Positions 1,125 to 13,437 of a stretch of DNA of 64,000 nucleotides are shown piece by piece. The position numbers were made by a program, and so were the translations under genes. The notes under the pieces are model-generated. The model was not told where the DNA came from. It saw only the letters and a program-made list of their open reading frames with translations, and ran no database searches. Position 1 is the first letter of the stretch, and each line of letters starts with the position of its first letter. This DNA comes from an uncultured delta proteobacterium (GTDB lineage: Bacteria; Desulfobacterota; Zymogenia; Zymogenales; Zymogenaceae), in the NCBI GenBank assembly GCA_963735595.1, contig CAVTLK010000001.1, positions 672,001 to 736,000 on the forward strand, in the 5' to 3' direction.

Positions 1125-2226
1125 TCATTGGTACTTGTAATAGGCCGCGCAGGTTCCCTCCGCCGAGACCATGCAGGGGCCGAGGGGGTTTCGAGGGAAG
1201 CACGCCGAGCCGAAACCGCGGACATTCGGGTGGCGAGATGATCCCCTTGAGCACGTCTCCGCAGCGGCAGCCCGGCGTATCGTGAGACTCAACGGCCGGG
1301 ATGTCAAATCGCATCGACGCGTCAAATCCCCGATACTCCTTACGAAAGCCAAGGCCGCTTTTCGGTATCATCCCGAGGCCCCGCCAGATGCGAGTCGGCC
1401 AGCTCGAAGACCTCGTATGAGGATCCTGCGGGCCGCCGCTATTGCCCTCTTCCTTGACGCGCGCGCCGATACTGAATCTCGGTCTTTACGTCTCCCGGAG
1501 ATGATCTGTTCCAGGATCATCAGATCCCTTCGAGGATGTCCACCGGCTCAAAACCGGTGATCACTCCCGCCCGGCCGCTTTCGGGCGATGATGCGAATAG
1601 GCGGCCGTCCCGAGGATCGTGCTCACGTGCCCGGGAAGCATGAAACCGTCCACGGAGATCAGGGGATCGGAAAGGAGTGCATCGATTGCCGGGGGGATAA
1701 CTTTATGAACGGAAAACACCGCGAGATTGGAAATGGAGCATGACACTGGCGGTCTTGACGACCGACGCCGCCGCCGGCGACGTCGTCTCGAATCCGATCC
1801 CCATGAAGACGATCTGCCGGTCCGGGATTGTTTTTGCGCCAGCGTCCAGACACTCCACCGCGGAATCGACGACCCTGACGTCCGCACCGTCGGCCCGCTC
1901 CTTTTCCAGCGACCGCCGTTCCGGTGCCGGGCACCCGGAGCATGTCGCCGAAGGAGGCAAATATGACGCCGGGCTGACGGGCCAGGAACAGCGCCGCGTC
2001 GACGTCCTGCACGGCAGGTCACGCAGACCGGACAGCCGGGTCCCGAAATAAGCCGGATGTTTTCGGGGAGCAGTCCCCGTATGCCGAAACGGCCGATGGC
2101 GTTGGTGTGGCTTCCGCAGACCTCCATAATGGTGATCGACCGGGTTAGCCGTCCCGCCCGTTTTCTGACTGCGGCCAGAAGCCCGTTAAAAAGCTTCGGG
2201 TCCCGATACTCGTCAATAAACTTCAT
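1125..2226 (-). CDS. hypD: Hydrogenase maturation protein HypD (frameshifted over several ORFs)
   Basis: MKFIDEYRD start, IMEVCGSHT, GPGCPVCVT, GIGFETT, GFMLPGHVS, GCRCGDVLKG and C-terminal PLGPCMVSAEGTCAAYYKY. Confidence 0.95.
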
Positions 2227-2440
2227 GTTCGGTAAGCTCCCGAAGCAGCGCAAGCTTCTCCCTGGCGAGCTCCTCATCGACCTTATGAATCGCGAAGCCC
2301 GCGTGACAGATGACGTAATCCCCGATCGTGACCTCTTCATCGATCAGGTCCAGAAAGGCCTCGCGCCGAGTCCCTTCGATATCGATAATCGCCCGATTAT
2401 CGTCGATGGAGATGATTTTCCCGGGAAATGCAATGCACAT
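2213..2440 (-). CDS. hypC: Hydrogenase assembly chaperone HypC
   Basis: MCIAFPGKI start and GDYVICHAGFAI motif; 75 aa. Confidence 0.96.
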   Translation of the reverse strand: MCIAFPGKIISIDDNRAIIDIEGTRREAFLDLIDEEVTIGDYVICHAGFAIHKVDEELAREKLALLRELTEHEVY

Positions 2441-2442
2441 TG

Positions 2443-2800
2443 CTACTCCTCTTGTTCCACTTCCATTTCGATGAGCTTCAGGTCTTCCGTGCCCCCTACC
2501 AGAAGCACCGAAGGATCACCGCATGAGGGGCACGATGAGTATCCCCTGATAGTCGATGTCATATTCCTTCCGACAGGAAGACACGAAATGACGACCGGAG
2601 TGATCTCGAAGGAAAGAACGGCCCCTTCGGCCCGGGTTCCCCGGGCCATCGCCTCAAACGCCGTCTCCAGGGCGTCCGGCTGGATGCACGACATCCTGCC
2701 GAACGAAAGCGTGATCCTGTCCGACTTTTGCCGCGTTGTTTTTTTCGGCGTGTTCAAGGGCGATCTCAAGGACCGACTGCGCCAGGCTCAGTTCGTGCAT
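2443..2800 (-). CDS. hypA: Hydrogenase nickel metallochaperone HypA (frameshifted)
   Basis: MHELSLAQSVLE start at 2800 after a GGAGG RBS; C-terminal CPSCG..GGTEDLKLIEMEVE. Confidence 0.9.
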
Positions 2801-3313
2801 TCCGGCCTCCTGACGGGTTTTACCGAGAGGGCCGCCAACTCCTCCAGCAGCAACCGCTCAATATCCGAAAATCGCTCGACCAACAGATCCGAAATCCTTA
2901 CTTCCATTGTATCATATTTCTCCGGCACGACGGTGATAAAAGTAACCGGCGGGCATTGATCCAAAAGATCGGCCATGGCAAGGACGTCCAGGAACTCCAC
3001 CTCGTGGGCCGACGTGGGTGCGTGGCAGATAGAGCGACATCTCTTCTTTCGTGAATCGGTATAGTGAGCCCGGCGTATCGTCGATCCTGATCGCATCGAT
3101 GACGATGAGATGCCCGGCGCCGGTGACGATATCCAGGAGACCCAGGCCCGCCGTCCCCCCGTCCACCAGCGAGACGGTATCCGGCAGTATATACCGATCC
3201 GAAAACCAGGCGATAAATCGGACCCCGAATCCGTCGTCCCCGACGAGGAGGTTGCCGAGTCCCAGTATGGTGATAGTTTTGTTTTGTTCATCGGCATGTA
3301 CGTAAAAAGACAA
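2788..3313 (-). CDS. Hydrogenase maturation endopeptidase (HyaD/HybD family), frameshifted; start uncertain
   Basis: ILGLGNLLVGDDGFG, VDGGTAG, IVIDAI and SAHEV motifs are spread over two overlapping ORFs. Confidence 0.92.
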
Positions 3314-3320
3314 GGTCGCA

Positions 3321-3356
3321 TAATAACAAAGTCCTCGCCGAAAAGCGAGGACTTTG
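3321..3356 (-). terminator. Hairpin/likely intrinsic terminator between hydrogenase structural and maturation genes
   Basis: Minus strand CAAAGTCCTCGC-TTTTCG-GCGAGGACTTTG followed by TTATTA. A second hairpin (GAGGGGAGA..TCTCCCCTC) lies at about 3367-3393. Confidence 0.6.
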
Positions 3357-3416
3357 CGAGATTTGTGAGGGGAGAGGATCCTTCTCCCCTCTCATTTCTT
3401 GAACAGGCGAGCCGAT

Positions 3417-4108
3417 TCAGTGCTCTTTGGCCTTAAAGACCATGCCGTTTATCATCGAGGAGACGGTGCCTTCCTTGAAGACGATGTCGTACCAGAAGGC
3501 CATATAAATGTGCACGATGATAAACAGGACAAAGAGCCAGGTCAGGATATGGTGGACGTAGCGCACCATCGCCAGCCCCCCCATGCAGACGCTCGACGGG
3601 GGTCAGTATCCAGGCGTAAGGCCCAGCAGCCCGTGATCGTATCCCGCCCCGGTGAGGATGAGTCCCGTAATGACGATGAGAAAGATCATCACGAAGAGCC
3701 CCATGTAGGACAGCGCCTGCAGCGGCCCGTACAGGTAGACGTGCTCCGGGCGCTCGTTGGACACGAGTAGGTAGAACTTGATCTGTTTAATGAAGTTCTT
3801 CCAATCGGTGATCGCGAGGAAGTTCTTCCAGTTGGCGTGAAACCTCTCGAAAGAACCCCATGTACATTCTCCAGACGAACAGTATCGTGAGGATCACGCC
3901 GAACAGGAGGTGATAGTACCGCATCTCCCCCATGAGGAACTTATGCACCGTCTCTCCGGACGACACCGAGAAACGGATCGGCGATATACCAGCCGGTTAC
4001 GATAAGGAAGAAGATGGAGATCGCCATGGCCCAGTGGTGCACGCGGATTGGCACCGTCCATTCCCTGACGGGTGTCCTCTTTTCCATGGCCGTATCTTTA
4101 TTTTCCAT
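3417..4108 (-). CDS. Ni/Fe-hydrogenase b-type cytochrome subunit (frameshifted; missing from the ORF track)
   Basis: Manual translation: MENKD..WTVPIRVHHWAMAISIFFLIVTGWYI, MRYYHLLFG, YGPLQALSY, VRYVHHILTWLFVLFIIVHIYMAFW..SSMINGMVFKAKEH*. It follows the large subunit directly. Confidence 0.92.
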
Positions 4109-4119
4109 GGCGGACTCCT

Positions 4120-5790
4120 TTACAATACTTTGAACTTCTTGATCTCGTTAGTCCTCGGGTCAATGATGTGGACGGCGCAGGCCATGCACGGATCAAACGA
4201 GTGGATCGTCCTGATGATCTCCAGCGGCTGATCAACGTTGGCAAGGCGAGTCCCGATCAGCGATTCTTCGTACGGCCCCCTGAGGCCGGCCGCATCCCTC
4301 GGCGAGCAGTTCCACGTCGAGGGAACGACCGCCTGGTAGTTTTCGATGACCTTGTTCTTGATCTTGATCCAGTGGCCCAGCGACCCGCGCGGCGCCTCTT
4401 TCATGCCGCGCCCTTGCGCCTCCTCGGGAACATCGCAGCGGGTCCACGTCCTGGTATCGCCGGACTTGATGTTGGTCACCAGCTCGTTGACCCAGGCCTC
4501 AGTATTGTCGGCGATGAGCTTGGTCTCGAGTGCCCGCGCGGCAGTCCTTCCAAGGGTTGAAAAGAGGACCGTGACCGGCAGTCCCGTGGCCTTGAGGGTG
4601 GAGTCGACCAGGTCCTTGATCTTCTGATCGCCCGTGGCATATCCGATGATGAAGCGTGCCAGCGGCCCCACCTCATAGGGGAGACCGTCGTACCGGGGCG
4701 CCTTGCACCAGGTATACTTCTCGTCGGCCTTGACGTGTCCGGACTCGTCGTAGTCGGTATAATTCGGTTCGGTTGACCCATCGTACGGGTGCAGCGGCTG
4801 GCCGTCCGTGTACCAGGAGTGCGTAACGTCCTCGGTGATCTTGGTCTCGTCAAGCTTCTCGACGTTTGCAAGGTCCCGGTTCTTGATGACGCCGGGCTGG
4901 AAGAACGTCGTGGTGTAGTCGTCGTCGAGGTTGATCCCCCCGTAGGAGAGGTAGTTCTTGACTCCGCCGCCGATCCCGGCCAAACCCTCGTCCTTGTAGT
5001 AGGTGGCCGCCAGCAGGACGTCCGGGATATACGCGGTCTCGACGAAGTTCCTCATCTCCTTGAGCCGGAAGAGATACTCGCCGATTCGGTAGGCGTCCAG
5101 CGTATCCATTACCGAGGTAACGCCGCCGGCAACCAGCGTCTGCGGGTGGGGGTTCTTGCCGCCGAAGATCGCCATCATCTGGGCGCCGACCTTTGAGACG
5201 GCCAGGGCGTCCAGGTAATGGGATACGATAATAAGGTTTGCCTCCGCGGGCAGCTTGTAGGAGGGGCTTCCCCAGTAGCCGTTGGCAAAGGGCCCTAACC
5301 GGCCCGATTCAACGAATTTTTTCAGCCGTTCCTGGACGGACTTATAGTGGGATGCGGAGGAATTGTACGGGTTGTCGCAATAGGCGCGCGCCATATCCTC
5401 GGCCCTCCGGGGGTCCGCCCCCAGGGCCGAAACGACGTCCACCCAGTCAAGACCGTGCAGGTGATAGAAATGCATGATGTGGTCGGTTATGTAGAGAGAT
5501 GCATTGATGAGGTTTCTCACGATACGGGCGTTCGTGGGCGGCTTGACCCCGAATGCGTCTTCCACTGCCAATATCGAGGCCTCATAATGGGAATAGGTGC
5601 AGACCCCGCAGAACCGCTGGGTCATGAGCCCCGCGTCCCGGGGGTCTCTCCCCTTGAGGATAGTCTCGATGCCCCGCCAGAGGGTGATGGTAGACCAGGC
5701 GTCCTTTACGGTATTACCCTCCAGCTCGACCTCTATGCGTAAATGTCCTTCAATCCGGGTAATCGGATCGATTATTATTTTCTGAGCCAT
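4120..5790 (-). CDS. [NiFe]-hydrogenase large subunit, group 1 (probably 1b)
   Basis: DPITRIEGHLRIEV, L1 motif QRFCGVCTYSH, L2 motif SFDPCMACAVH plus a cleavable C-terminal tail. Ligands are all Cys (no Sec). Confidence 0.97.
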   Translation of the reverse strand: MAQKIIIDPITRIEGHLRIEVELEGNTVKDAWSTITLWRGIETILKGRDPRDAGLMTQRFCGVCTYSHYEASILAVEDAFGVKPPTNARIVRNLINASLYITDHIMHFYHLHGLDWVDVVSALGADPRRAEDMARAYCDNPYNSSASHYKSVQERLKKFVESGRLGPFANGYWGSPSYKLPAEANLIIVSHYLDALAVSKVGAQMMAIFGGKNPHPQTLVAGGVTSVMDTLDAYRIGEYLFRLKEMRNFVETAYIPDVLLAATYYKDEGLAGIGGGVKNYLSYGGINLDDDYTTTFFQPGVIKNRDLANVEKLDETKITEDVTHSWYTDGQPLHPYDGSTEPNYTDYDESGHVKADEKYTWCKAPRYDGLPYEVGPLARFIIGYATGDQKIKDLVDSTLKATGLPVTVLFSTLGRTAARALETKLIADNTEAWVNELVTNIKSGDTRTWTRCDVPEEAQGRGMKEAPRGSLGHWIKIKNKVIENYQAVVPSTWNCSPRDAAGLRGPYEESLIGTRLANVDQPLEIIRTIHSFDPCMACAVHIIDPRTNEIKKFKVL

Positions 5791-5815
5791 TCTCACTCTC
5801 CTTTATGATGGCCTG

Positions 5816-7027
5816 CTACTTTTTTTCGGCTTTCTTCTTCTTGTCGTCTTCCGGGCCGTGGCGCTTGATGGCCGAAGCCGCTGCATGGGCGGCAACGCCG
5901 GCCACCGTGAGGCCCGCCAGGGTCGCGAAGACCGTGTTGACAGTGGACTCAACCCCCTTTACGCCGATCGCCCCATCGGATATCGGTTTTTCGAGGGGGG
6001 CCATCGTATCCCAGAAGGCCGGCTCGTAGCATCCCATACAGCCGTGACCGGCCATGATCGGCCACGAGGTGCCGTCGTTATAGCGGACCTTGCCGCAGTT
6101 CGCATAGGTGTAGGGGCCCTTGCACCCCATCTTATAGAGGCACCAGCCCCGCTTTGCGCCGGCGTCGCCCCATTCCTCGACATACTCGCCGGCGTCGTAG
6201 TGGGAGCGCCGCTCGCAGTAGTCGTGAATACGCTTTCCGTAGGCAAACAGCGGCCTGCCGAGGGAATCGGTGGCCGGCAGCGCCCCGAACATCAGGAAAT
6301 GGAGAACGGTCCCGACGAAGTTTACCGGGTTGGGGGGGCATCCCGCGATGTTGATCGTCCTGATCCCGAGGGAGTCCCGAATGCCCTTGGCATCCGTCGG
6401 GTTGGGCTTGGCAGCCTGGATGTTACCGAAGGAAGAGCAGCTCCCGATGCAGATGACGGCGGCGGCCTTCGAGGCCGCTTCCTTGCCGATCTCTTTTCCG
6501 GTTTTCCCCTCGCTCCCGATCCTCAGGTACTTGCCGTCCAGACCCTCGGGGATGGCACCCTCGATGACCAGCACGTACTGCCCCTCGAAATCGGCCATGG
6601 CCTTCGTGAGGTTTTCCTCGGCCTGCTTGCCGGAAGCGGCCATCAGGGTCTCGTGGTACTCCAGGGAGATCGTGTCCAGGAGAATGTCATCGACGTTCGG
6701 ATAGGACGTGCGCAGGAATGCCTCGCTGCACCCGGTGCACTCGGCGAAGTTAAGCCAGATGACCGGCAGCCGGCTGAAGTTCTCCGCCGCGCGCGCCACC
6801 ATGGGGCGGAACATCGGCGGGAGCATCATGACGCCGGTTATGAACGACGTCCACTTGACGAACTCCCTGCGTGAGACCCCCCGCGCCTTGAGGCTTTCCT
6901 GAAGACTCTCTCTCGGTTCGGGCAATGTCTCTTCAATTTGATCCAGTTGGACCTGACAGTACTCCATTAATTCCCGGTACTGCTTTTCTACCGTCCGGCG
7001 GTGGCCGGAGCCGTTTGTGCCGCCCAT
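5816..7027 (-). CDS. [NiFe]-hydrogenase small subunit with Tat signal and C-terminal membrane anchor
   Basis: SRREFVK twin-Arg motif, ECTGCSE, GCPPNP, HDYCERR, CLYKMGCKGP, GHGCMGC and a hydrophobic tail with His. AAAGGAGG RBS precedes the ATG at 7027. Confidence 0.97.
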   Translation of the reverse strand: MGGTNGSGHRRTVEKQYRELMEYCQVQLDQIEETLPEPRESLQESLKARGVSRREFVKWTSFITGVMMLPPMFRPMVARAAENFSRLPVIWLNFAECTGCSEAFLRTSYPNVDDILLDTISLEYHETLMAASGKQAEENLTKAMADFEGQYVLVIEGAIPEGLDGKYLRIGSEGKTGKEIGKEAASKAAAVICIGSCSSFGNIQAAKPNPTDAKGIRDSLGIRTINIAGCPPNPVNFVGTVLHFLMFGALPATDSLGRPLFAYGKRIHDYCERRSHYDAGEYVEEWGDAGAKRGWCLYKMGCKGPYTYANCGKVRYNDGTSWPIMAGHGCMGCYEPAFWDTMAPLEKPISDGAIGVKGVESTVNTVFATLAGLTVAGVAAHAAASAIKRHGPEDDKKKKAEKK

Positions 7028-7350
7028 AATGCCTCCTTTCAATAGATCATCTGGTCTCTGTAGGAAACTACTCGGTATAATCAATTAGATCGGCGCGCAA
7101 TCCTTCCGCCCCGCTTTCTGTACGGATTATCGATGCTCATTGGACATCGATGCCGGCAGGGAGCCGATTGCCCGGCTTCGTATCGAGCGGGTCTCGATAA
7201 TCGTGATGCCGACAACAAAGCACTCCGACCTGATGAGATCCGCTGTCAGTTCGCCGCTAAGATAAAACCGGTGTTTTGGGAAGGATACGCGATGCGCAAG
7301 GGTAAGATTCCGGGAAGATGACATGGGCACGTCATCCCGATCCTGCGCCG

Positions 7351-7493
7351 TTCTCCTTTCCAAACACGGGAGGCATGGGCGTTTCCGTCCATACCCTATC
7401 GTCCCTGTTCCATCGGCGGAGGGGAAAGGATTGCCTTTTCGTGGCCGTAAATCCCTTCCCGACCCGTACCATTAGGGCACAGGGATCGGAGAA
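7351..7493 (-). ncRNA. Moco/Wco riboswitch aptamer (P3-less, tungsten-cofactor-type architecture) in the hydrogenase leader
   Basis: Minus strand: P1 TTCTCC/GGAGAA; CCGA; P2 TCCCTGT..CCTAA..GATGG..ACAGGGA with an inserted hairpin; P4 AGGGTATGGACG-GAAA-CGCCCATGCCT; P5 and 3' end CCCGTGTTTGGAAAGGAG. This matches the remembered Moco motif consensus GCCTCCCG..TTTGGAAAGG. Confidence 0.88.
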
Positions 7494-7502
7494 AGCAGGT
7501 TA

Positions 7503-7531
7503 TTTATAGTGCAACCGCATAAAGATGTCAA
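7503..7531 (-). promoter_or_regulatory. Sigma70-type promoter for the hydrogenase operon
   Basis: TTGACA-17 nt-TATAAA; predicted start site near 7496, just 5' of the aptamer. Confidence 0.75.
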
Positions 7532-7684
7532 GGTTTTTTGATGGGCGGGTAGATGAAAAGAAGCGATAGGGGATAGCCCCACAATAGCGCTGTTATCCCG
7601 CTACCCATAACATGACAGCGGGCGGAAGTGAGGAGAGCGGCTAGCCGGCATCGGCCGCGTGCTGTCCTGCCGGAACGTACTCTA

Positions 7685-8534
7685 TTATGTATCGATTGCC
7701 AGGACGCTCACCAGGTCGACCGTGTCCCGGATATATCCCTCCCGTTTCGCAACGATATCAAGGCGGATGGTCGTAAGGTCCTCAAGTCTCGGGAAGGGCG
7801 TCGGCCTTTCTTTCGAGTCGACCGATTTCAGGTAGTGCTTACAGGTATCGCAGACATATACCCGGTGGGCGGGGTCGTTTTCAACCGTGAAATATCGTGT
7901 CTTTTCCCGCCCGGCTTCACCACAAAACGGACAGGTCAACCGGCGGAAGTTCCACCGCGTCAAACATCGGCCGCAGGAGAGCGTGAGACGTGCCGTCCTC
8001 TCCCTCGATGAGCGAAAGGTGCGGGGCGGCGCCGCACACGGGGCAGTAGGAGGCCGCCCACTTGTCCAGCAATCCGGTTCGCTCAAAGCTCTCCTTAATC
8101 GGATTAAGGAGATACCGCAGCGTCTCGTTTGCCGCCAGAAGCGCTACCGGACGCGAGCCCCCGAATCCCTCCGGAAAGAGATATTCCTGGCTCAGCACCC
8201 CGCTCAGCAGCGCCCGGAAGGCCTGCCGATCGCCGTAAAACCCGACGATTTCCTCGGCGCCTTTCTGATCCTTTTCGAGCACGACGGTTACCAGCCGGGC
8301 AAACCGCTTCCCGAGCCTTTCGACATCGTCAGGAATCAGCCGCACGTCGGCCAGAGGGAATCCGTCGGACAACCGGCCTGAATCCGGAGGGGCGTCCGCT
8401 TGCCTCTGCGTCCCCGTCTCTTCTCCGCCGATTCGCACAAAACCCGTCAGGATTGCCAGAAGCGGCTCGATTTTCGGGTCATTACTCATCGCCCGTTTAA
8501 TGGCGGCGATTTCGGGGTCTTTCATGTATGCCAT
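7685..8534 (-). CDS. fdhE: Formate dehydrogenase accessory protein FdhE (frameshifted)
   Basis: CPVCG..P, CGRCLTRW, CPFCG and CDTCKHYLK motifs, plus EDLTTIRLD; downstream of the gamma subunit. Confidence 0.88.
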
Positions 8535-8599
8535 TCCCCATAATGATTGGGGCGGCCGTACGGCCGCCCCTTCAATGATAGATCGGGTTTTCGGCTCAC

Positions 8600-9238
8600 T
8601 TAAGCCTTTGACTTTCGGGTTTCCTTGACGATCTTTTCCCGGTAGTAGCCGGGCATATGGGTCTTGGCCCACGCCTCGGTCACCTTGCCGTCCGTCATGA
8701 CCGGCAGGCTGCCCGTCGTGCCGACGGTGCCGAGATAGATGTGCACCATCGAAAACCCGCCCATGACGGCAACACCGAGGGCATGAAAGACCACCGTCCA
8801 CCGCATGAGCGGAGCCCAGATGAGGCCCTTTCCGAACCAGAGCAGTAACCCCGTGGCAATCATTACGGCGCCGTAGAGTGCCACCGTAATAAAGAACAGC
8901 TTCTGGCCCGCGTTGTACTTATACGGCTCGGGTATTTTCGCCTTCCAGAGGTAACCGCCCGCCGCCTTCATCCACTCGATATCTGTCTTGTCGATGTAGC
9001 CCGCTTCTTTATACCAGTGACGCACGGCAAAGACAAGGGCAATCGTGAAGACAAGGCCGATAAACCGGTGGTAGTCCTTGACCGCCCGGTAACCGCCGAG
9101 CATTTCGGCAAGGGGGGCAAACGCGTTGACGGCGATTATCAGACCGGTAAAGACCAGGGCCAGACACGTCCCCGCCAGAACCCAGTGGATTACCCGCTCG
9201 TAGGGGGTCGATGCGATAACGACTTTTTGCCCAGCCAT
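8600..9238 (-). CDS. fdnI: Formate dehydrogenase cytochrome b (gamma) subunit
   Basis: ERVIHW, YHRFIG, KYNAGQK, HALG, VHIY..MTDGKVTEAWAKTH; four TM helices. Confidence 0.93.
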   Translation of the reverse strand: MAGQKVVIASTPYERVIHWVLAGTCLALVFTGLIIAVNAFAPLAEMLGGYRAVKDYHRFIGLVFTIALVFAVRHWYKEAGYIDKTDIEWMKAAGGYLWKAKIPEPYKYNAGQKLFFITVALYGAVMIATGLLLWFGKGLIWAPLMRWTVVFHALGVAVMGGFSMVHIYLGTVGTTGSLPVMTDGKVTEAWAKTHMPGYYREKIVKETRKSKA

Positions 9239-9239
9239 G

Positions 9240-10043
9240 CTACTTACCTCCCTCTTCCTTGGGATGCTTCGGTCCCTTGATCATATAGTGAAGGAGCGCC
9301 CCCCGATGACGCCTCCGATTGACAGGAGTCCGAGCGGTTTGGCGATGTTTCTCCAGAGTTTTACGGTTATCGGGACGTGCGGCGAGACCGGGAGCTTCGC
9401 GTAGAGCTTTTCCTGCTCGGTCAGCACGTACATGACGTGGGTCCCATCGACGTAGTCCCTACCGTACAGGGAGGCCGCCAGACCTTTTTCGACAAGTTGG
9501 GCCACCCGCTGCTCTCCCTTGTCGATCATCTGCTCTTTGAGGCCGAAGCTGAGGCACCCGGTGGGGCATGCCTTGACGCAGGCCGGAATCATTCCGTTGG
9601 TGATTCTATCCTCGCAAAGGGTGCACTTATACGTCACCTTCGTCTCTGAGTCGTAGCGCGGTATACCGAACGGACAGGCAATGACGCAGTACTTGCAGCC
9701 GATGCAGAGGTCCCGGTTGAGCCTGACGGCCCCTTTCTCCCCGTACGTGAGGGCGCCGGAAGGGCAGACCCGCACGCAGGAGGCGTCGGTGCAGTGAAAG
9801 CACCCGTCCTTGCGGAAAATCCAGTCGACACTGCCGTCCTCTTTTTCACGCTCCTGGAAGCGGATGAGCGTCCAGGTGTTGTGTTGAAGGTCGGGAGGGT
9901 TTTGGTGGCTTCCCCAATTTGTTGTCTGGGCGCCCGGCTGTGAATTCCAGTTCTTGCAGGCAACCTGACAACCGCGGCATCCCGTGCACTTTGGAGAGGT
10001 CGATGAGTTTGACCATCTCTTCCTTTATCTTTGTCGCTGCCAT
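9240..10043 (-). CDS. fdnH: Formate dehydrogenase iron-sulfur (beta) subunit with C-terminal TM anchor (frameshifted)
   Basis: GCRGCQVACKNWN, GCFHCTDASCVRVCP, CIGCKYCVIACPFG, KCTLCEDR..PACVKACPTG, GTHVMYVL. Confidence 0.93.
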
Positions 10044-13000
10044 TATAGCCACCCTCCTTTCACCTTTTCAACATTAACCAGGAAGGCCTTGCTCTCGGGA
10101 ATTGAGGTGTTTGGGTCACCGATAGTCGACGTGAGCAGATTGGCCGAGTCGCCGAACGTGTAGACCTCCGGCTTGGGCACGGCAGGATCGCTGCTCTGCC
10201 CCTCCTCGGTGGTCCGCCACCCGAAGTGCCACGGGATACCGACCTGATGGAGCTCGACGTTGTCACCGAGTTTAAACGGTTTAAACCGCTTGGTCACGAT
10301 GGCAACGGCCACTATTTCGCCCCTGGCCGACGAGACCTTAACCCGGTCACCCCCTTCGATCCCCTTCATCTCCGCGAGCTCTTCGCTCATCTCTACAAAA
10401 TTTCCCGGCTGCATCTCTGCCAGCCAGGGCTGCCAGCGCGTCATAAGCCCGGTCTGCCAGTGTTCCGTAACGCGGTACGTAGTCGCCAGAATCGGGTACT
10501 TCGGATCGCAGGTGCCGGCGTAAACGTCGACGTCGCTGCCGACTTCCGGTCTATCGTAGCGGCGGATGACGGGACTGATGAGCTGTTTGGGATTGAGCAG
10601 GTTTGCCGGCACGGGACACTCGACAGGCTCATAGTGCACCGGGAACGGGCCGTCGGCAAGGCCGGGGCCGAATATCGATGCTACGCCCTCTTTCTGCATG
10701 ATGAAGGGGAGCCTCCCATCCGGGTTGGTGGACCCGTCGGCCTTTTTGAGCGGCGGATAATTCCCGTCGATGACATCCCCAACCCACTTGTCTCCGGCCC
10801 AGCGGACGACCGGCTTTGCCGGCGCCCACGGCTTGCCGGTGGGATCGACCGATGCGCGGTTGTAGATGATCCTCCGGTTGACGGGCCAGGACCATGCCCA
10901 TTTCGGGAAAAGACCGATGCCCGACGTATCCGTGTTGTTCCTTCGGGCGGAGTTGTTGCCGTCCGCGTTGTAGGACTGGGAATAGACCCAGCTACCGCTG
11001 GAGGTGGAACCGTCGTCCTGGAGCATTACGAACGAAGGCACGAGGTCCCCCTTCTTATACTGCTTGTCCTTGATGACTGTATCGTCGAGGAAGTATCCGT
11101 TTATCTCTTTGGCCACGTAGTGGCGTATCAAAGGCCTTCATCTTGCCCGAGTAGTCCTTAGGGCCGTATTCCCAGGCGAGCTTGGTGAAGGCTTCCTTCA
11201 AGACGGCGTTGTCCTTCTCCATGTGCTCCCTGACCTTGAAGAAAGAGCTCGGTATGATCTCGCCGTCGGCCATCGCCTCTCCCGGCGGATTGACCGCCTT
11301 ATAGCGCCATTGCATCCAGCGACCGGAGTTGGTGATGCTCCCCTCCTTTTCGAGGGACGCGGCGCACGGAAGCATGAAGACCTCTGTCTTGATATCGGCG
11401 GGTTCATTCCAGGACCCCGCCAGAAAGAGCCGGTCTCGTTGTCGAAGAGATTGACGTTCACGAGCCACTCGAGCTTCGCCAGGCCCTTTCTGACCTTATT
11501 CGCATGGGCACCGGAGCATGCCGGGTTCTGACCCCAGGCGAGCACACCCTTGAGTTTACCCTTGTAGGCGGCGTCCCAGATCTGCAGCCAGGAGTAGTTG
11601 ACGCCGTCGTCGGGCTTGGGGAGGTAGCCGTAGCCTCTTCGAGAGTGGCGTTCAAGCCGTAGAGCGCCCGCAGGAGACTCACCATATACTTGGGATAGTT
11701 GGATGCCCAGCTCGCGCTCAGGGGGTTGGATGGCTTGACTGCGTGATCCGGGCCGGTTGTAGGCGGCCAGCGTACGCCAGAGACGCGGTCGGCGCGGCGA
11801 GGTATCCGGGAAGAATATGGTAGAGGAGTGCCGTAGTCGGTGGAGCCCTGAACGTTGGACTCCCCCTCAGCGCGTTGACGCCGCCTCCGGCCACTCCCAT
11901 GTTGCCCAGAAGCATCTGGATGATGGACATCGCCCGGATGTTCTGGACGCCGACCGTGTGCTGCGTAAAGCCCATGGCGTACAGGATCGTCCCGGCCTTG
12001 TCGGACGCTCCCGCTCTTCGCGTACGCCTCGTAGACGGCCGATGAGCTTATCTTCGGGGGTGCCGGTAACCTGTGAGACCGTCTTCAGGCTCGTACCGGT
12101 CATACTCTTTCTTGAGCAGCTGTAAAACGCACTGCGGATCAGTAAGCGTCCGGTCTTTCATCGGGAACCCGTCCCCGCCGGCCACGAACGTCCAGGTCGC
12201 CTTATCGTATTTGCCGCCCGCCGGCGTCTCCGTCAGGCCGGAAAATACGCCGTCGTTGTCTGCCGCCAGCTTAAAGGCTGAATTGACGACAAACGACGCG
12301 TTCGTATATTCCCGGACGTATCTCAGAAGTAGAGCTTCTTTGTCGATGATATACCTGATCATACCGCCCAGAAAGGCGATATCCGATCCGGATCGGAGGG
12401 GGGCGTAGATGTGGGCCTTTGATGAAGTCTGGGTGAACCTCGGATCGACGCTGATAAGGACGGCACCGTTGTCGATAGCCCGCTGTACCCATTTGAAGGA
12501 AATCGGGTGATTTGCGGCAGCATTGCTGCCCATGACAAGAATGACGTCACTGTTCTTCAGATCGATCCAGTGATTGGTCATTGCGCCTCTACCGAACGAC
12601 TCTGCCAGAGCCGCTACCGTTGCGCTGTGTCAGATACGGGCCTGGTGTTCAATATACACCAGGCCTAACCCCCTCAGGAATTTCTGATAGACATAGCATT
12701 CTTCGTTGTCCATGGCCGCGCTGCCGACCGAGGCGACCGCGGTCGTTCGGTTGACGACCTGGCCCTTGTCGTTGGTGCGGGTGAAGCTCTCGTTGCGGGA
12801 CTTGACGATTCTCTTGGCGATCTTGTCGAGGGCCCAGTCCCACGATACCGCTTCCCATTTGTCCGAGCCGGGGGCGCGGTAGAGGGGAGTCGACAGGCGG
12901 GCGTCATTGACCGCTATCTGATAGAGCGAGCCGCCCTTCGGGCAGAGGGAACCCTCGTTGATCGGGTGATCTGGATCGCCCTCGGTGTTGATCACCGTGC

Positions 13001-13187
13001 CGTTGCGGGTATGGACGATGATTCCGCAGCCCACCGCGCAGTAGGGACAGATGGTGGTCGTCTCTGTGGCGTACAGGGTTTTCAGCGGGAGCGCCTCCGC
13101 CCGAACCGAAGCGATATTCAGGCCCAGACCTCCCACGAAGACCGTGGCGCCGGTTAGTCTAAGAAACGTACGTCTGGTAACTTCCAT
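10043..13187 (-). CDS. fdnG: Selenocysteine-containing Mo/W formate dehydrogenase alpha subunit (Tat signal); Sec UGA at 12630-12632; several indels
   Basis: TRRTFL Tat motif, CPYCAVGCG..CPKG, EHQARI-UGA-HSATVAALAESFGRGAMTNHW in frame, MGFTQHTVG, and C-terminal TTYRVTEHWQTG..PESKAFLVNV. Confidence 0.96.
12596..12614 (-). promoter_or_regulatory. Bacterial SECIS hairpin
   Basis: 15 nt after the UGA: GCGGCTCT-GGC-AGAGTCGT stem-loop with a G-containing apical loop. Confidence 0.75.
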
Positions 13188-13258
13188 GGCTCTCCTCTTT
13201 GCCTGAGTAATACTTTATTGACCGTTGACGTTCAACCCGATTGGCCAACCAAACCAAT

Positions 13259-13315
13259 AAAAAAAAGGAAGAGATACCTCCCCCTTGTCCCCATGGGAAG
13301 GTCATCTCTTCCTTT
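13259..13315 (-). terminator. Intrinsic terminator inside the fdnG leader (riboswitch expression platform)
   Basis: AAAGGAAGAGAT-G-ACCTTCCC...GGGGAGGT-ATCTCTTCC followed by T8. It lies 70 nt upstream of the fdnG ATG and downstream of the promoter. Confidence 0.88.
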
Positions 13316-13392
13316 GCAAACGGCGGGGTAAGCGATCTCTCCCTTACCCGTATCGGCTCACGGATCCCGTCGGGATCGGTGAACTCGGAAGA
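13307..13392 (-). ncRNA. Compact variant of the Moco/Wco riboswitch aptamer upstream of fdnG
   Basis: P1 TCTTCC/GGAAGA; CCGAG; P2 GTTCAC-[GATCCC GAC GGGATC]-GTGAGC; linker CGATA; P4 GGGTAAG-GGA-GAGA-TCG-CTTACCC; P5 GC-CGTTT-GC then AAAGG. Same topology as the 7351-7493 element. Confidence 0.7.
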
Positions 13393-13408
13393 TAGTATTT
13401 TCGCGAAA

Positions 13409-13437
13409 ATAATATACGGGTGGTACTAAAATGTCAA
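13409..13437 (-). promoter_or_regulatory. Sigma70-type promoter for the fdn operon
   Basis: TTGACA-17 nt-TATTAT; predicted start site near 13402, about 10 nt before the aptamer. Confidence 0.75.

Follow-up and report, generated by a model that had tools for sequence, protein, structure and literature searches.

The Moco RNA motif, also called the molybdenum cofactor/tungsten cofactor (Moco/Wco, or Tuco) riboswitch and modelled as RF01055, was described by Regulski et al. in 2008 (PMC2408646), where E. coli moaA, under OFF control, is the case tested and absence of the P3 stem is the published mark of tungsten sensing. Targets listed there for the P3-lacking class include the formate dehydrogenase FDH-N, AOR and tup genes, and the RNAs treated here match the same model. 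We analyzed a window of 64,000 nucleotides (nt) from an uncultured delta proteobacterium of the family Zymogenaceae (assembly GCA_963735595.1, contig CAVTLK010000001.1, positions 672,001 to 736,000; this genome is G000, and further G and L numbers denote the other genomes and loci compared). In this window a formate dehydrogenase (FDH) operon and a [NiFe]-hydrogenase operon each begin with an aptamer of this class, and the two aptamers belong to different subtypes. The arrangement is real and conserved; judged from sequence, the half in which ligand turns FDH on is well supported and the half in which ligand turns the hydrogenase off is likely. As a whole, we consider it moderately probable that the pair forms a two-way switch read by the tungsten cofactor, with FDH on and the pterin-free hydrogenase off.

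A sequence-only reading of this stretch had proposed that both leaders carry Moco/Wco-family aptamers, and both were recovered by the RF01055 covariance model, for which the Rfam gathering cut-off is 36 bits. The hydrogenase leader scored 64.9 bits (E 2.5e-13) and the FDH leader 43.1 bits (E 1.3e-9 on a 131-nt stretch), with FDH leader orthologues in G001 and G003 at 54.6 and 51.5 bits. The FDH aptamer was missed in three wider RF01055 scans, which we put down to search filters. The same reading had described the two operons as sharing one design; their aptamers do not share one, the FDH aptamer being a distinct subtype. The hydrogenase aptamer (canonical, subtype A) has no P3, a long P2 with a receptor-like loop, a GAAA-capped P4 and a C-C/G-G P5. 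The FDH aptamer (subtype B) has no P3, a short P2 without tetraloop receptor, a GAGA-capped P4 and a G-C/G-C P5, the combination of GAAA tetraloop and P2 receptor being present in the hydrogenase leader and absent in the FDH leader. We considered whether the short loop on P5 of this subtype B aptamer might be an assembly error and rejected this, an identical loop being found in G003. Identity with Moco-II (RF01713) was also rejected, as neither leader matches its model and its size differs; going by PMC2864571, that RNA of ~45-50 nt shares only the name and the association with Moco genes.

The RF01055 alignments show no P3 in either aptamer, which places both in the tungsten (Wco/Tuco) type and not in the molybdenum class, and all aptamers of this genome are likewise without P3. 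The gene modA was not found in four of four family genomes searched. Host tungsten uptake is represented by TupA-like and TupB-like best matches that fall below the equivalog cut-offs, and AOR is present. A split in which one aptamer senses molybdenum and the other tungsten, put forward in the sequence-only reading, found no support in these results and was rejected as the main idea on the grounds of the missing P3 in both aptamers and the missing modA.

As read from the sequence, each promoter would transcribe a P3-less aptamer first, with P1 beginning ~9 nt (hydrogenase leader) and ~16 nt (FDH leader) past the -10 box. In the FDH leader the 3' strand of P1 doubles as the 5' arm of an intrinsic terminator with a fold of -32.3 kcal/mol (z -5.0, matched by none of 200 shuffles). 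A fold in which P1 is held is about 11 kcal/mol less stable than the terminator fold, and in it the hairpin is lifted off the U-run. With the P1 strand inside a strong terminator, ligand would therefore turn FDH on; this conclusion is well supported by the sequence and agrees with the ON terminator logic proposed earlier. Transcription is strongly predicted to stop near 13260 without ligand and to read through with ligand, when P1 would hold.

This design extends across subtype B. A terminator overlapping P1 was found in all 18 leaders of the training set and in 12 of the 13 later leaders that came from aptamer-only searches (30 of 31 overall). The training set is biased, seven of 23 regular-expression rows having been dropped as chance matches that by eye had no aptamer core and no U-run, and the 13 later leaders are the fairer test of the terminator rule. 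All 30 terminator-bearing leaders precede pterin enzymes, namely FDH-N (11), AOR operons (18, three assigned by Pfam and the others by similar N-termini) and a nap operon (1); the exception, in G036, lacks a terminator and precedes a protein that appears DsbA-like by eye. In G004 the subtype B switch lies ~770 nt upstream of FDH. Across an alignment of 18 leaders, 10 of 22 pairs had two-sided changes, every one of them in P2 or P4. No shuffle out of 500 scored as high, a control that is inflated by the relatedness of the aligned leaders. P1 and P5 had no two-sided changes, the P5 pairs being invariant G-C, and 95.4% of cells were paired in the structure alignment. An exact-pattern contig scan for subtype B was too strict, returning four stretches of which one was a chance match within a coding region, and scans of more than 40 genomes applied stricter filters and scored only part of the candidates, so that subtype B is undercounted.

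Two further observations concern these leaders. In G057 (L349:60-4107) a subtype B ON switch stands before a WD40 gene, napD and napA. NapA is a molybdenum enzyme, and from this nap switch subtype B is not limited to tungsten enzymes. Tandem aptamers occur in L041 and L044 (G007, G008) and in L028 (G005), as two ON units before AOR and two canonical copies before a NAD-aldehyde dehydrogenase.

The hydrogenase leader of the window is organized differently. It folds into a single long hairpin in which a pyrimidine-rich tract sequesters P5 and P1 (z -2.2; 4 of 200 shuffles as good), and the anti-aptamer duplex alone gave p 0.31. The element formed by this tract and the U-rich stretch behind it (Table 1) is a candidate Rho site, which would be OFF, or a candidate weak terminator, which would be ON. 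Rho is encoded in the genome, and 6 of 10 hydrogenase leaders have a pyrimidine-rich tract at +66 to +77. Among relatives, the hydrogenase leaders of G205 and the metagenome locus L320 have a terminator downstream of P1 and not overlapping it and, by eye, contain bases able to pair with the P5 loop, which on sequence is the usual OFF design. In G006 and L311 a reading frame begins 9 nt after a ribosome site that lies within P1, the arrangement of E. coli moaA. In G007 and G008 a start codon lies at +10, and a hairpin with a U-rich tail occupies the place that the terminator takes in tupA leaders. For the window leader itself, OFF polarity appears likely, ON polarity unlikely and an inert leader improbable. 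One public RNA run contained 6% of the words, in the form of contigs from related organisms that are mostly less than 95% alike and give no transcript starts, ends or levels.

In the proposed mechanism, the hydrogenase leader would respond through a canonical aptamer like those on tungstate-uptake genes, a weaker step than the one proposed for FDH. In relatives, ligand would close the leader either at a classical terminator or by making the ribosome site of a leader open reading frame inaccessible; in the genus of the window, it may expose the pyrimidine-rich tract to Rho, which would then terminate transcription. The two enzymes are both outward-facing and linked to cytochrome b, which would make them interchangeable modules, with tungsten supply setting formate versus H2. 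A toggle of this kind was the central idea of the sequence-only reading. Its FDH half is supported, and for its hydrogenase half OFF control is seen in sequence only in relatives, an ON reading being the less likely one for the window leader.

Six aptamers are present in this genome, five recovered by RF01055 plus the one on FDH. Four have the canonical form, with a GAAA loop, a receptor-like P2 and a C-C/G-G P5, and stand before the hydrogenase, tupA, tupBC and a NAD-aldehyde dehydrogenase; the two subtype B copies are on FDH and AOR. The canonical aptamer before the NAD-aldehyde dehydrogenase is found in the family and in G213. G002 has a canonical copy directly before a second, unrelated [NiFe]-hydrogenase, and in this genome the second [NiFe]-hydrogenase sits behind the NAD-aldehyde dehydrogenase with its canonical aptamer. 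A parallel pairing would then be tungsten AOR, under the ON subtype, against NAD-aldehyde dehydrogenase, under the canonical one. We infer that canonical copies on uptake and pterin-free enzymes, with subtype B on the matching pterin enzymes, resemble a cofactor-sparing swap.

Some of these leaders have features of their own. At G000:C1:155067-161866 (L001) and in G002 (L086), a canonical aptamer with a ribosome site in P1 is accompanied by a conserved leader peptide of 24 residues, the last of which are three prolines and isoleucine. The NAD-aldehyde dehydrogenase comes next, and behind it lies a [NiFe]-hydrogenase operon that is group 3-like and includes a NuoG-like subunit. G002 has this leader a second time, directly on the hydrogenase operon. 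The tupA leader (G000:C5:171600-171731, L003; G005 L045) contains a 42-codon open reading frame that begins just past the aptamer ribosome site and runs to the tupA start, which suggests translational coupling.

A survey of relatives showed the pairing to be maintained within the family and to occur again in a second one. The hydrogenase-linked aptamer was present in 8 of 10 Zymogenaceae genomes (G000-G004, G006, G007 and G009). In G008 the aptamer is at one contig end and the hydrogenase gene at another, so the link is probable. In G005 miaA leads directly into the hydrogenase, the locus being devoid of both the FDH operon and the aptamer, and FDH-N was not found in this 88% complete genome; G005 is thus a natural control. 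Operon arrangement varies, being tandem in the window, divergent in G006 and L311 and apart in G007, and each operon keeps its own aptamer subtype despite the varied gene order. The core of the hydrogenase aptamer is intact across four genera, with P2 diverging. G205, from a second family of the phylum, has a hydrogenase with canonical aptamer and OFF-type terminator followed by FDH with subtype B, and L320 resembles it in the OFF-type terminator before the hydrogenase. Canonical or decayed aptamers were also seen near the hydrogenase loci L312, L313, L306, L309, L332, L325 and L328 on the opposite strand; most of these have short leaders, FDH-N-like starts and no terminator, and translational control is possible.

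Several results weigh against the two-way switch. Some concern the window leader, which lacks both a classical terminator and a leader start codon, and in which 4-6 U follow the long hairpin in G000 and G001, making an ON terminator possible. Whole-leader partition-function folding with and without P1 gave no clear shift in ribosome-site access, and in 9 of 10 hydrogenase leaders the anti-aptamer duplex did not outperform shuffles. Canonical aptamers also occur before AOR and FDH-N in other families, so that this subtype is not inherently OFF. Others concern distribution. G009 keeps the hydrogenase switch, and FDH-N was not found in that genome (88% complete, 550 contigs). Hydrogenases with this aptamer are rare outside the family, where it was in sense at one of 20 hydrogenase loci (G205), with one antisense, and at 3 of 69 metagenome hydrogenase loci with at least 700 nt upstream; none of 77 sites, from the 45 of 208 further genomes that had sites, precedes a hydrogenase within 1.5 kb on each side. 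Direct ligand binding was not among the tests of PMC2408646, and under tungsten limitation in Eubacterium limosum RNA was unchanged for three of five riboswitch operons (PMC11725836).

Three other explanations were weighed. In one, which we find unlikely, both leaders are ON: the hydrogenase hairpin and U-tract would be a terminator relieved by ligand, and a coupled formate/H2 module would be co-induced. The hairpin does bury the P5/P1 strand of the aptamer, 6 of the 8 nt behind it are U in G000 and G001, and the window leader shows no evident OFF platform. Its stem is irregular, however, with z -2.2 against -5.0 for the FDH terminator, and its U-tract is not kept across genera, being lost in G006, G008, G009 and L311. 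Both hydrogenase leaders outside the family bear OFF-type terminators, no hydrogenase leader examined has a subtype B aptamer, and read-through from the FDH promoter would co-induce the two operons without a second switch.

Less probable still is that the subtypes sense different molecules, for example mature bis-pterin or dinucleotide versus a precursor, or molybdenum versus tungsten, and so report separate signals, a possibility that is compatible with opposite polarity. Subtype B alters conserved core positions, with its G-C P5 and absent receptor, and tracks cofactor-consuming enzymes; it is also found before the nap operon and, in the supplement of PMC2408646, before Thermus modA. Against this, both subtypes are without P3, modA is missing in the four family genomes, and loss of tertiary contacts may simply weaken binding and raise the threshold, which would suit an ON switch. 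The hydrogenase aptamer might lastly be a transplanted tungstate-transporter leader with little effect on output. Its platform resembles tupA leaders, a second promoter may lie downstream of the aptamer in G007, G009 and G205 (by eye), and G005 does without the aptamer, but the core has stayed intact across four genera while P2 diverged, and the aptamer recurs before hydrogenases in G205, L320, G002 and the list for Syntrophomonas wolfei; we find this account very improbable. The possible second promoters, of sigma-70 type, are at L059, L060 and L080 (G009, G007 and G205), between the aptamer and the hydrogenase start. The two-way switch remains the account we favour.

The features of the two operons are given in Table 1. 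The operons had been described as back-to-back, which was a misreading: they lie in tandem on the - strand with FDH upstream. The -35/-10 spacing of the FDH promoter is similar in G001 and G003, and the hydrogenase promoter is conserved in G001, G002 and G003; it was not listed by the promoter scanner, which demands T at position 6 of the -10 box. Gene identities were assigned with NCBIfam and Pfam. The FDH has the features of FDH-N (FdnGHI type), with an alpha subunit bearing a twin-arginine translocation (Tat) signal and selenocysteine (Sec), a 4Fe-4S beta subunit, a cytochrome b gamma subunit and FdhE; the whole-protein cut-off was reached by G004 and G006, the frameshifted window copy falling below it. 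The nearest solved structures to FDH alpha are 6sdv and 1h0h, which we take to be tungsten enzymes and which score above E. coli 1kqf. A hairpin follows its in-frame TGA (window 12575-12632, - strand), making a Sec codon with a Sec insertion sequence likely. The hydrogenase has the features of a group 1 membrane-bound [NiFe] enzyme, with a Tat small subunit, a large subunit and a cytochrome b and without a pterin-binding subunit. Twin-arginine motifs are visible in the leading proteins of both operons. The identity of the cytochrome b comes from the intact G001 orthologue (TIGR02125 and PF01292 matches), and hydrogenase maturation genes follow downstream of its gene.

Many frameshifts are present at window 1500-12600, affecting hyp, cytochrome b, fdhE and FDH genes. 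They are probably assembly errors, because the FDH genes of G001, G004 and G006 are whole apart from one in-frame TGA. The small-subunit extension, ~40 residues ahead of the Tat motif, is shared by a clade (64-71% identity, L066-L079) that occurs in several families of the phylum. A second FDH-like gene containing Sec lies beyond the window at G000:C1:656968-658989, with no aptamer nearby by RF01055 or the subtype B model.

Table 1 Features of the FDH and hydrogenase operons, with positions numbered in the window.
Feature	Position	Strand	Remarks
Sigma-70-type promoter, FDH operon	13409..13437	-	TTGACA-17-TATTAT, 11/12 consensus
Moco/Wco aptamer, subtype B	13304..13393	-	FDH leader; RF01055 over 13293-13402, alignment, covariation
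Intrinsic terminator, predicted ligand-ON platform	13259..13315	-	5' arm is the 3' strand of aptamer P1
FDH-N alpha subunit, Tat signal	10043..13187	-	TIGR01553; frameshift-split in this assembly
In-frame TGA of FDH alpha, likely Sec codon	12630-12632	-	
FDH beta (4Fe-4S) subunit	9242..10043	-	TIGR01582; frameshifted, 3' end approximate
FDH gamma (cytochrome b) subunit	8600..9238	-	TIGR01583 above cut-off
FdhE maturation protein	7685..8525	-	TIGR01562; frameshifted
Sigma-70-type promoter, hydrogenase operon	7503..7531	-	TTGACA-17-TATAAA, read from sequence
Moco/Wco aptamer, canonical subtype A	7352..7494	-	Hydrogenase leader; RF01055 over 7337-7503
Pyrimidine-rich anti-aptamer	7285-7268	-	Can pair with P5/P1; then short U-rich tract 7267-7259 (element 7259..7287)
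[NiFe]-hydrogenase small subunit, N-terminal extension and Tat motif	5816..7027	-	TIGR00391, 457 bits
[NiFe]-hydrogenase large subunit	4120..5790	-	NF033181, 595.7 bits; Cys, not Sec, in C-terminal motif
Hydrogenase cytochrome b subunit	3418..4108	-	Frameshifted, 3' end approximate

It has long been asked whether anaerobic partners exchange electrons through H2 or through formate, and trace-metal effects on this choice have had no molecular sensor. If the two-way switch is correct, a pair of riboswitches of opposite sign, placed on FDH and hydrogenase modules that are interchangeable, would supply one. In P. carbinolicus grown with tungstate, FDH activity rose 100- to 2700-fold and hydrogenase changed 1.1- and 0.5-fold, effects that the passages of PMC4275255 give without discussion of a riboswitch. 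In the passages of PMC5101538 the choice between Hyd2 and Fdh2 depends on growth conditions, with no matches for tungsten, molybdenum or riboswitch. An RNA toggle, if real, might account for the conflict between results on Hyd2 and Fdh2 in S. wolfei, a model syntroph, and predicts that tungsten would move hyd2 and fdh2 in opposite directions in this organism. The present analysis also defines a predicted ON subtype in a riboswitch class so far tested only as OFF. Rfam filters readily overlook this subtype B, which is a marker of pterin-enzyme operons. Through transcription termination it would also provide a readout for a ligand whose instability has stood in the way of binding assays. More tentatively, and with some doubt on our part, anaerobes may build a toggle purely from RNA, with one cofactor and two riboswitch designs, in which the ON subtype licenses tungstoenzymes, the canonical one releases cofactor-free substitutes and trace tungsten sets H2 or formate, a solution that would have been reached separately in Zymogenaceae, the second family and S. 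wolfei.

Parts of this arrangement can be recognized in earlier lists. The text of PMC2408646 notes four receptor-less RNAs with a GCAA loop, and these correspond to subtype B, two standing before AOR operons and two before Thermus modA (by eye). The Moorella and Desulfotomaculum AOR rows have a G-C P5 and a hairpin with U-run that takes in the P1 strand, and the Thermus modA variants have a ribosome site in P1 (all by eye). Unlike the pair proposed here, the passages of that paper describe no ON subtype and no control of pterin-free substitutes, and its main text gives no matches for hydrogenase or 'ON switch'. Its Suppl. Fig. S2 lists tandem Moco RNAs in S. wolfei (Swo-1-8/-10) before an [FeFe]-hydrogenase and cytochrome b, and another (Swo-1-11) before FDH-N, HybA, FdnI and FdhE. 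The kinds of target are the same as in the window, a cytochrome b-linked hydrogenase and FDH-N each under an RF01055-type RNA, but the hydrogenase is [FeFe] and not [NiFe], the operons are far apart, both aptamers are canonical (by eye) and the entries are listed without interpretation.

Another related system is the Tuco regulon of E. limosum, which in PMC11725836 comprises five P3-less RF01055 RNAs with mixed platforms on a tungsten enzyme and tup transporters; it differs in having no hydrogenase among its five targets and no riboswitch before its FDH. Control of a hydrogenase by an RF01055-type RNA is not described in the passages seen of PMC11725836, PMC3766115, PMC13390414, PMC9971707, PMC8892533 and PMC6046458, or in the extracts of the PMC2864571 supplement. 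The sequence-only reading had known of no description of such a system. For the toggle and the ON subtype this holds in the open-licence PMC and bioRxiv literature, where none was found; for the leaders as such it does not, the S. wolfei hydrogenase and FDH-N leaders having been listed in 2008.

The logic of the hydrogenase half has a counterpart in another cofactor. Cobalamin riboswitches control B12-independent isozymes, of which metE and nrdAB are examples. There, as proposed here, a cofactor riboswitch represses the cofactor-free substitute (PMC3766115). The present pair would differ from the cobalamin case in that the substitute uses H2 instead of formate, and in that a second switch of opposite sign gates the cofactor enzyme.

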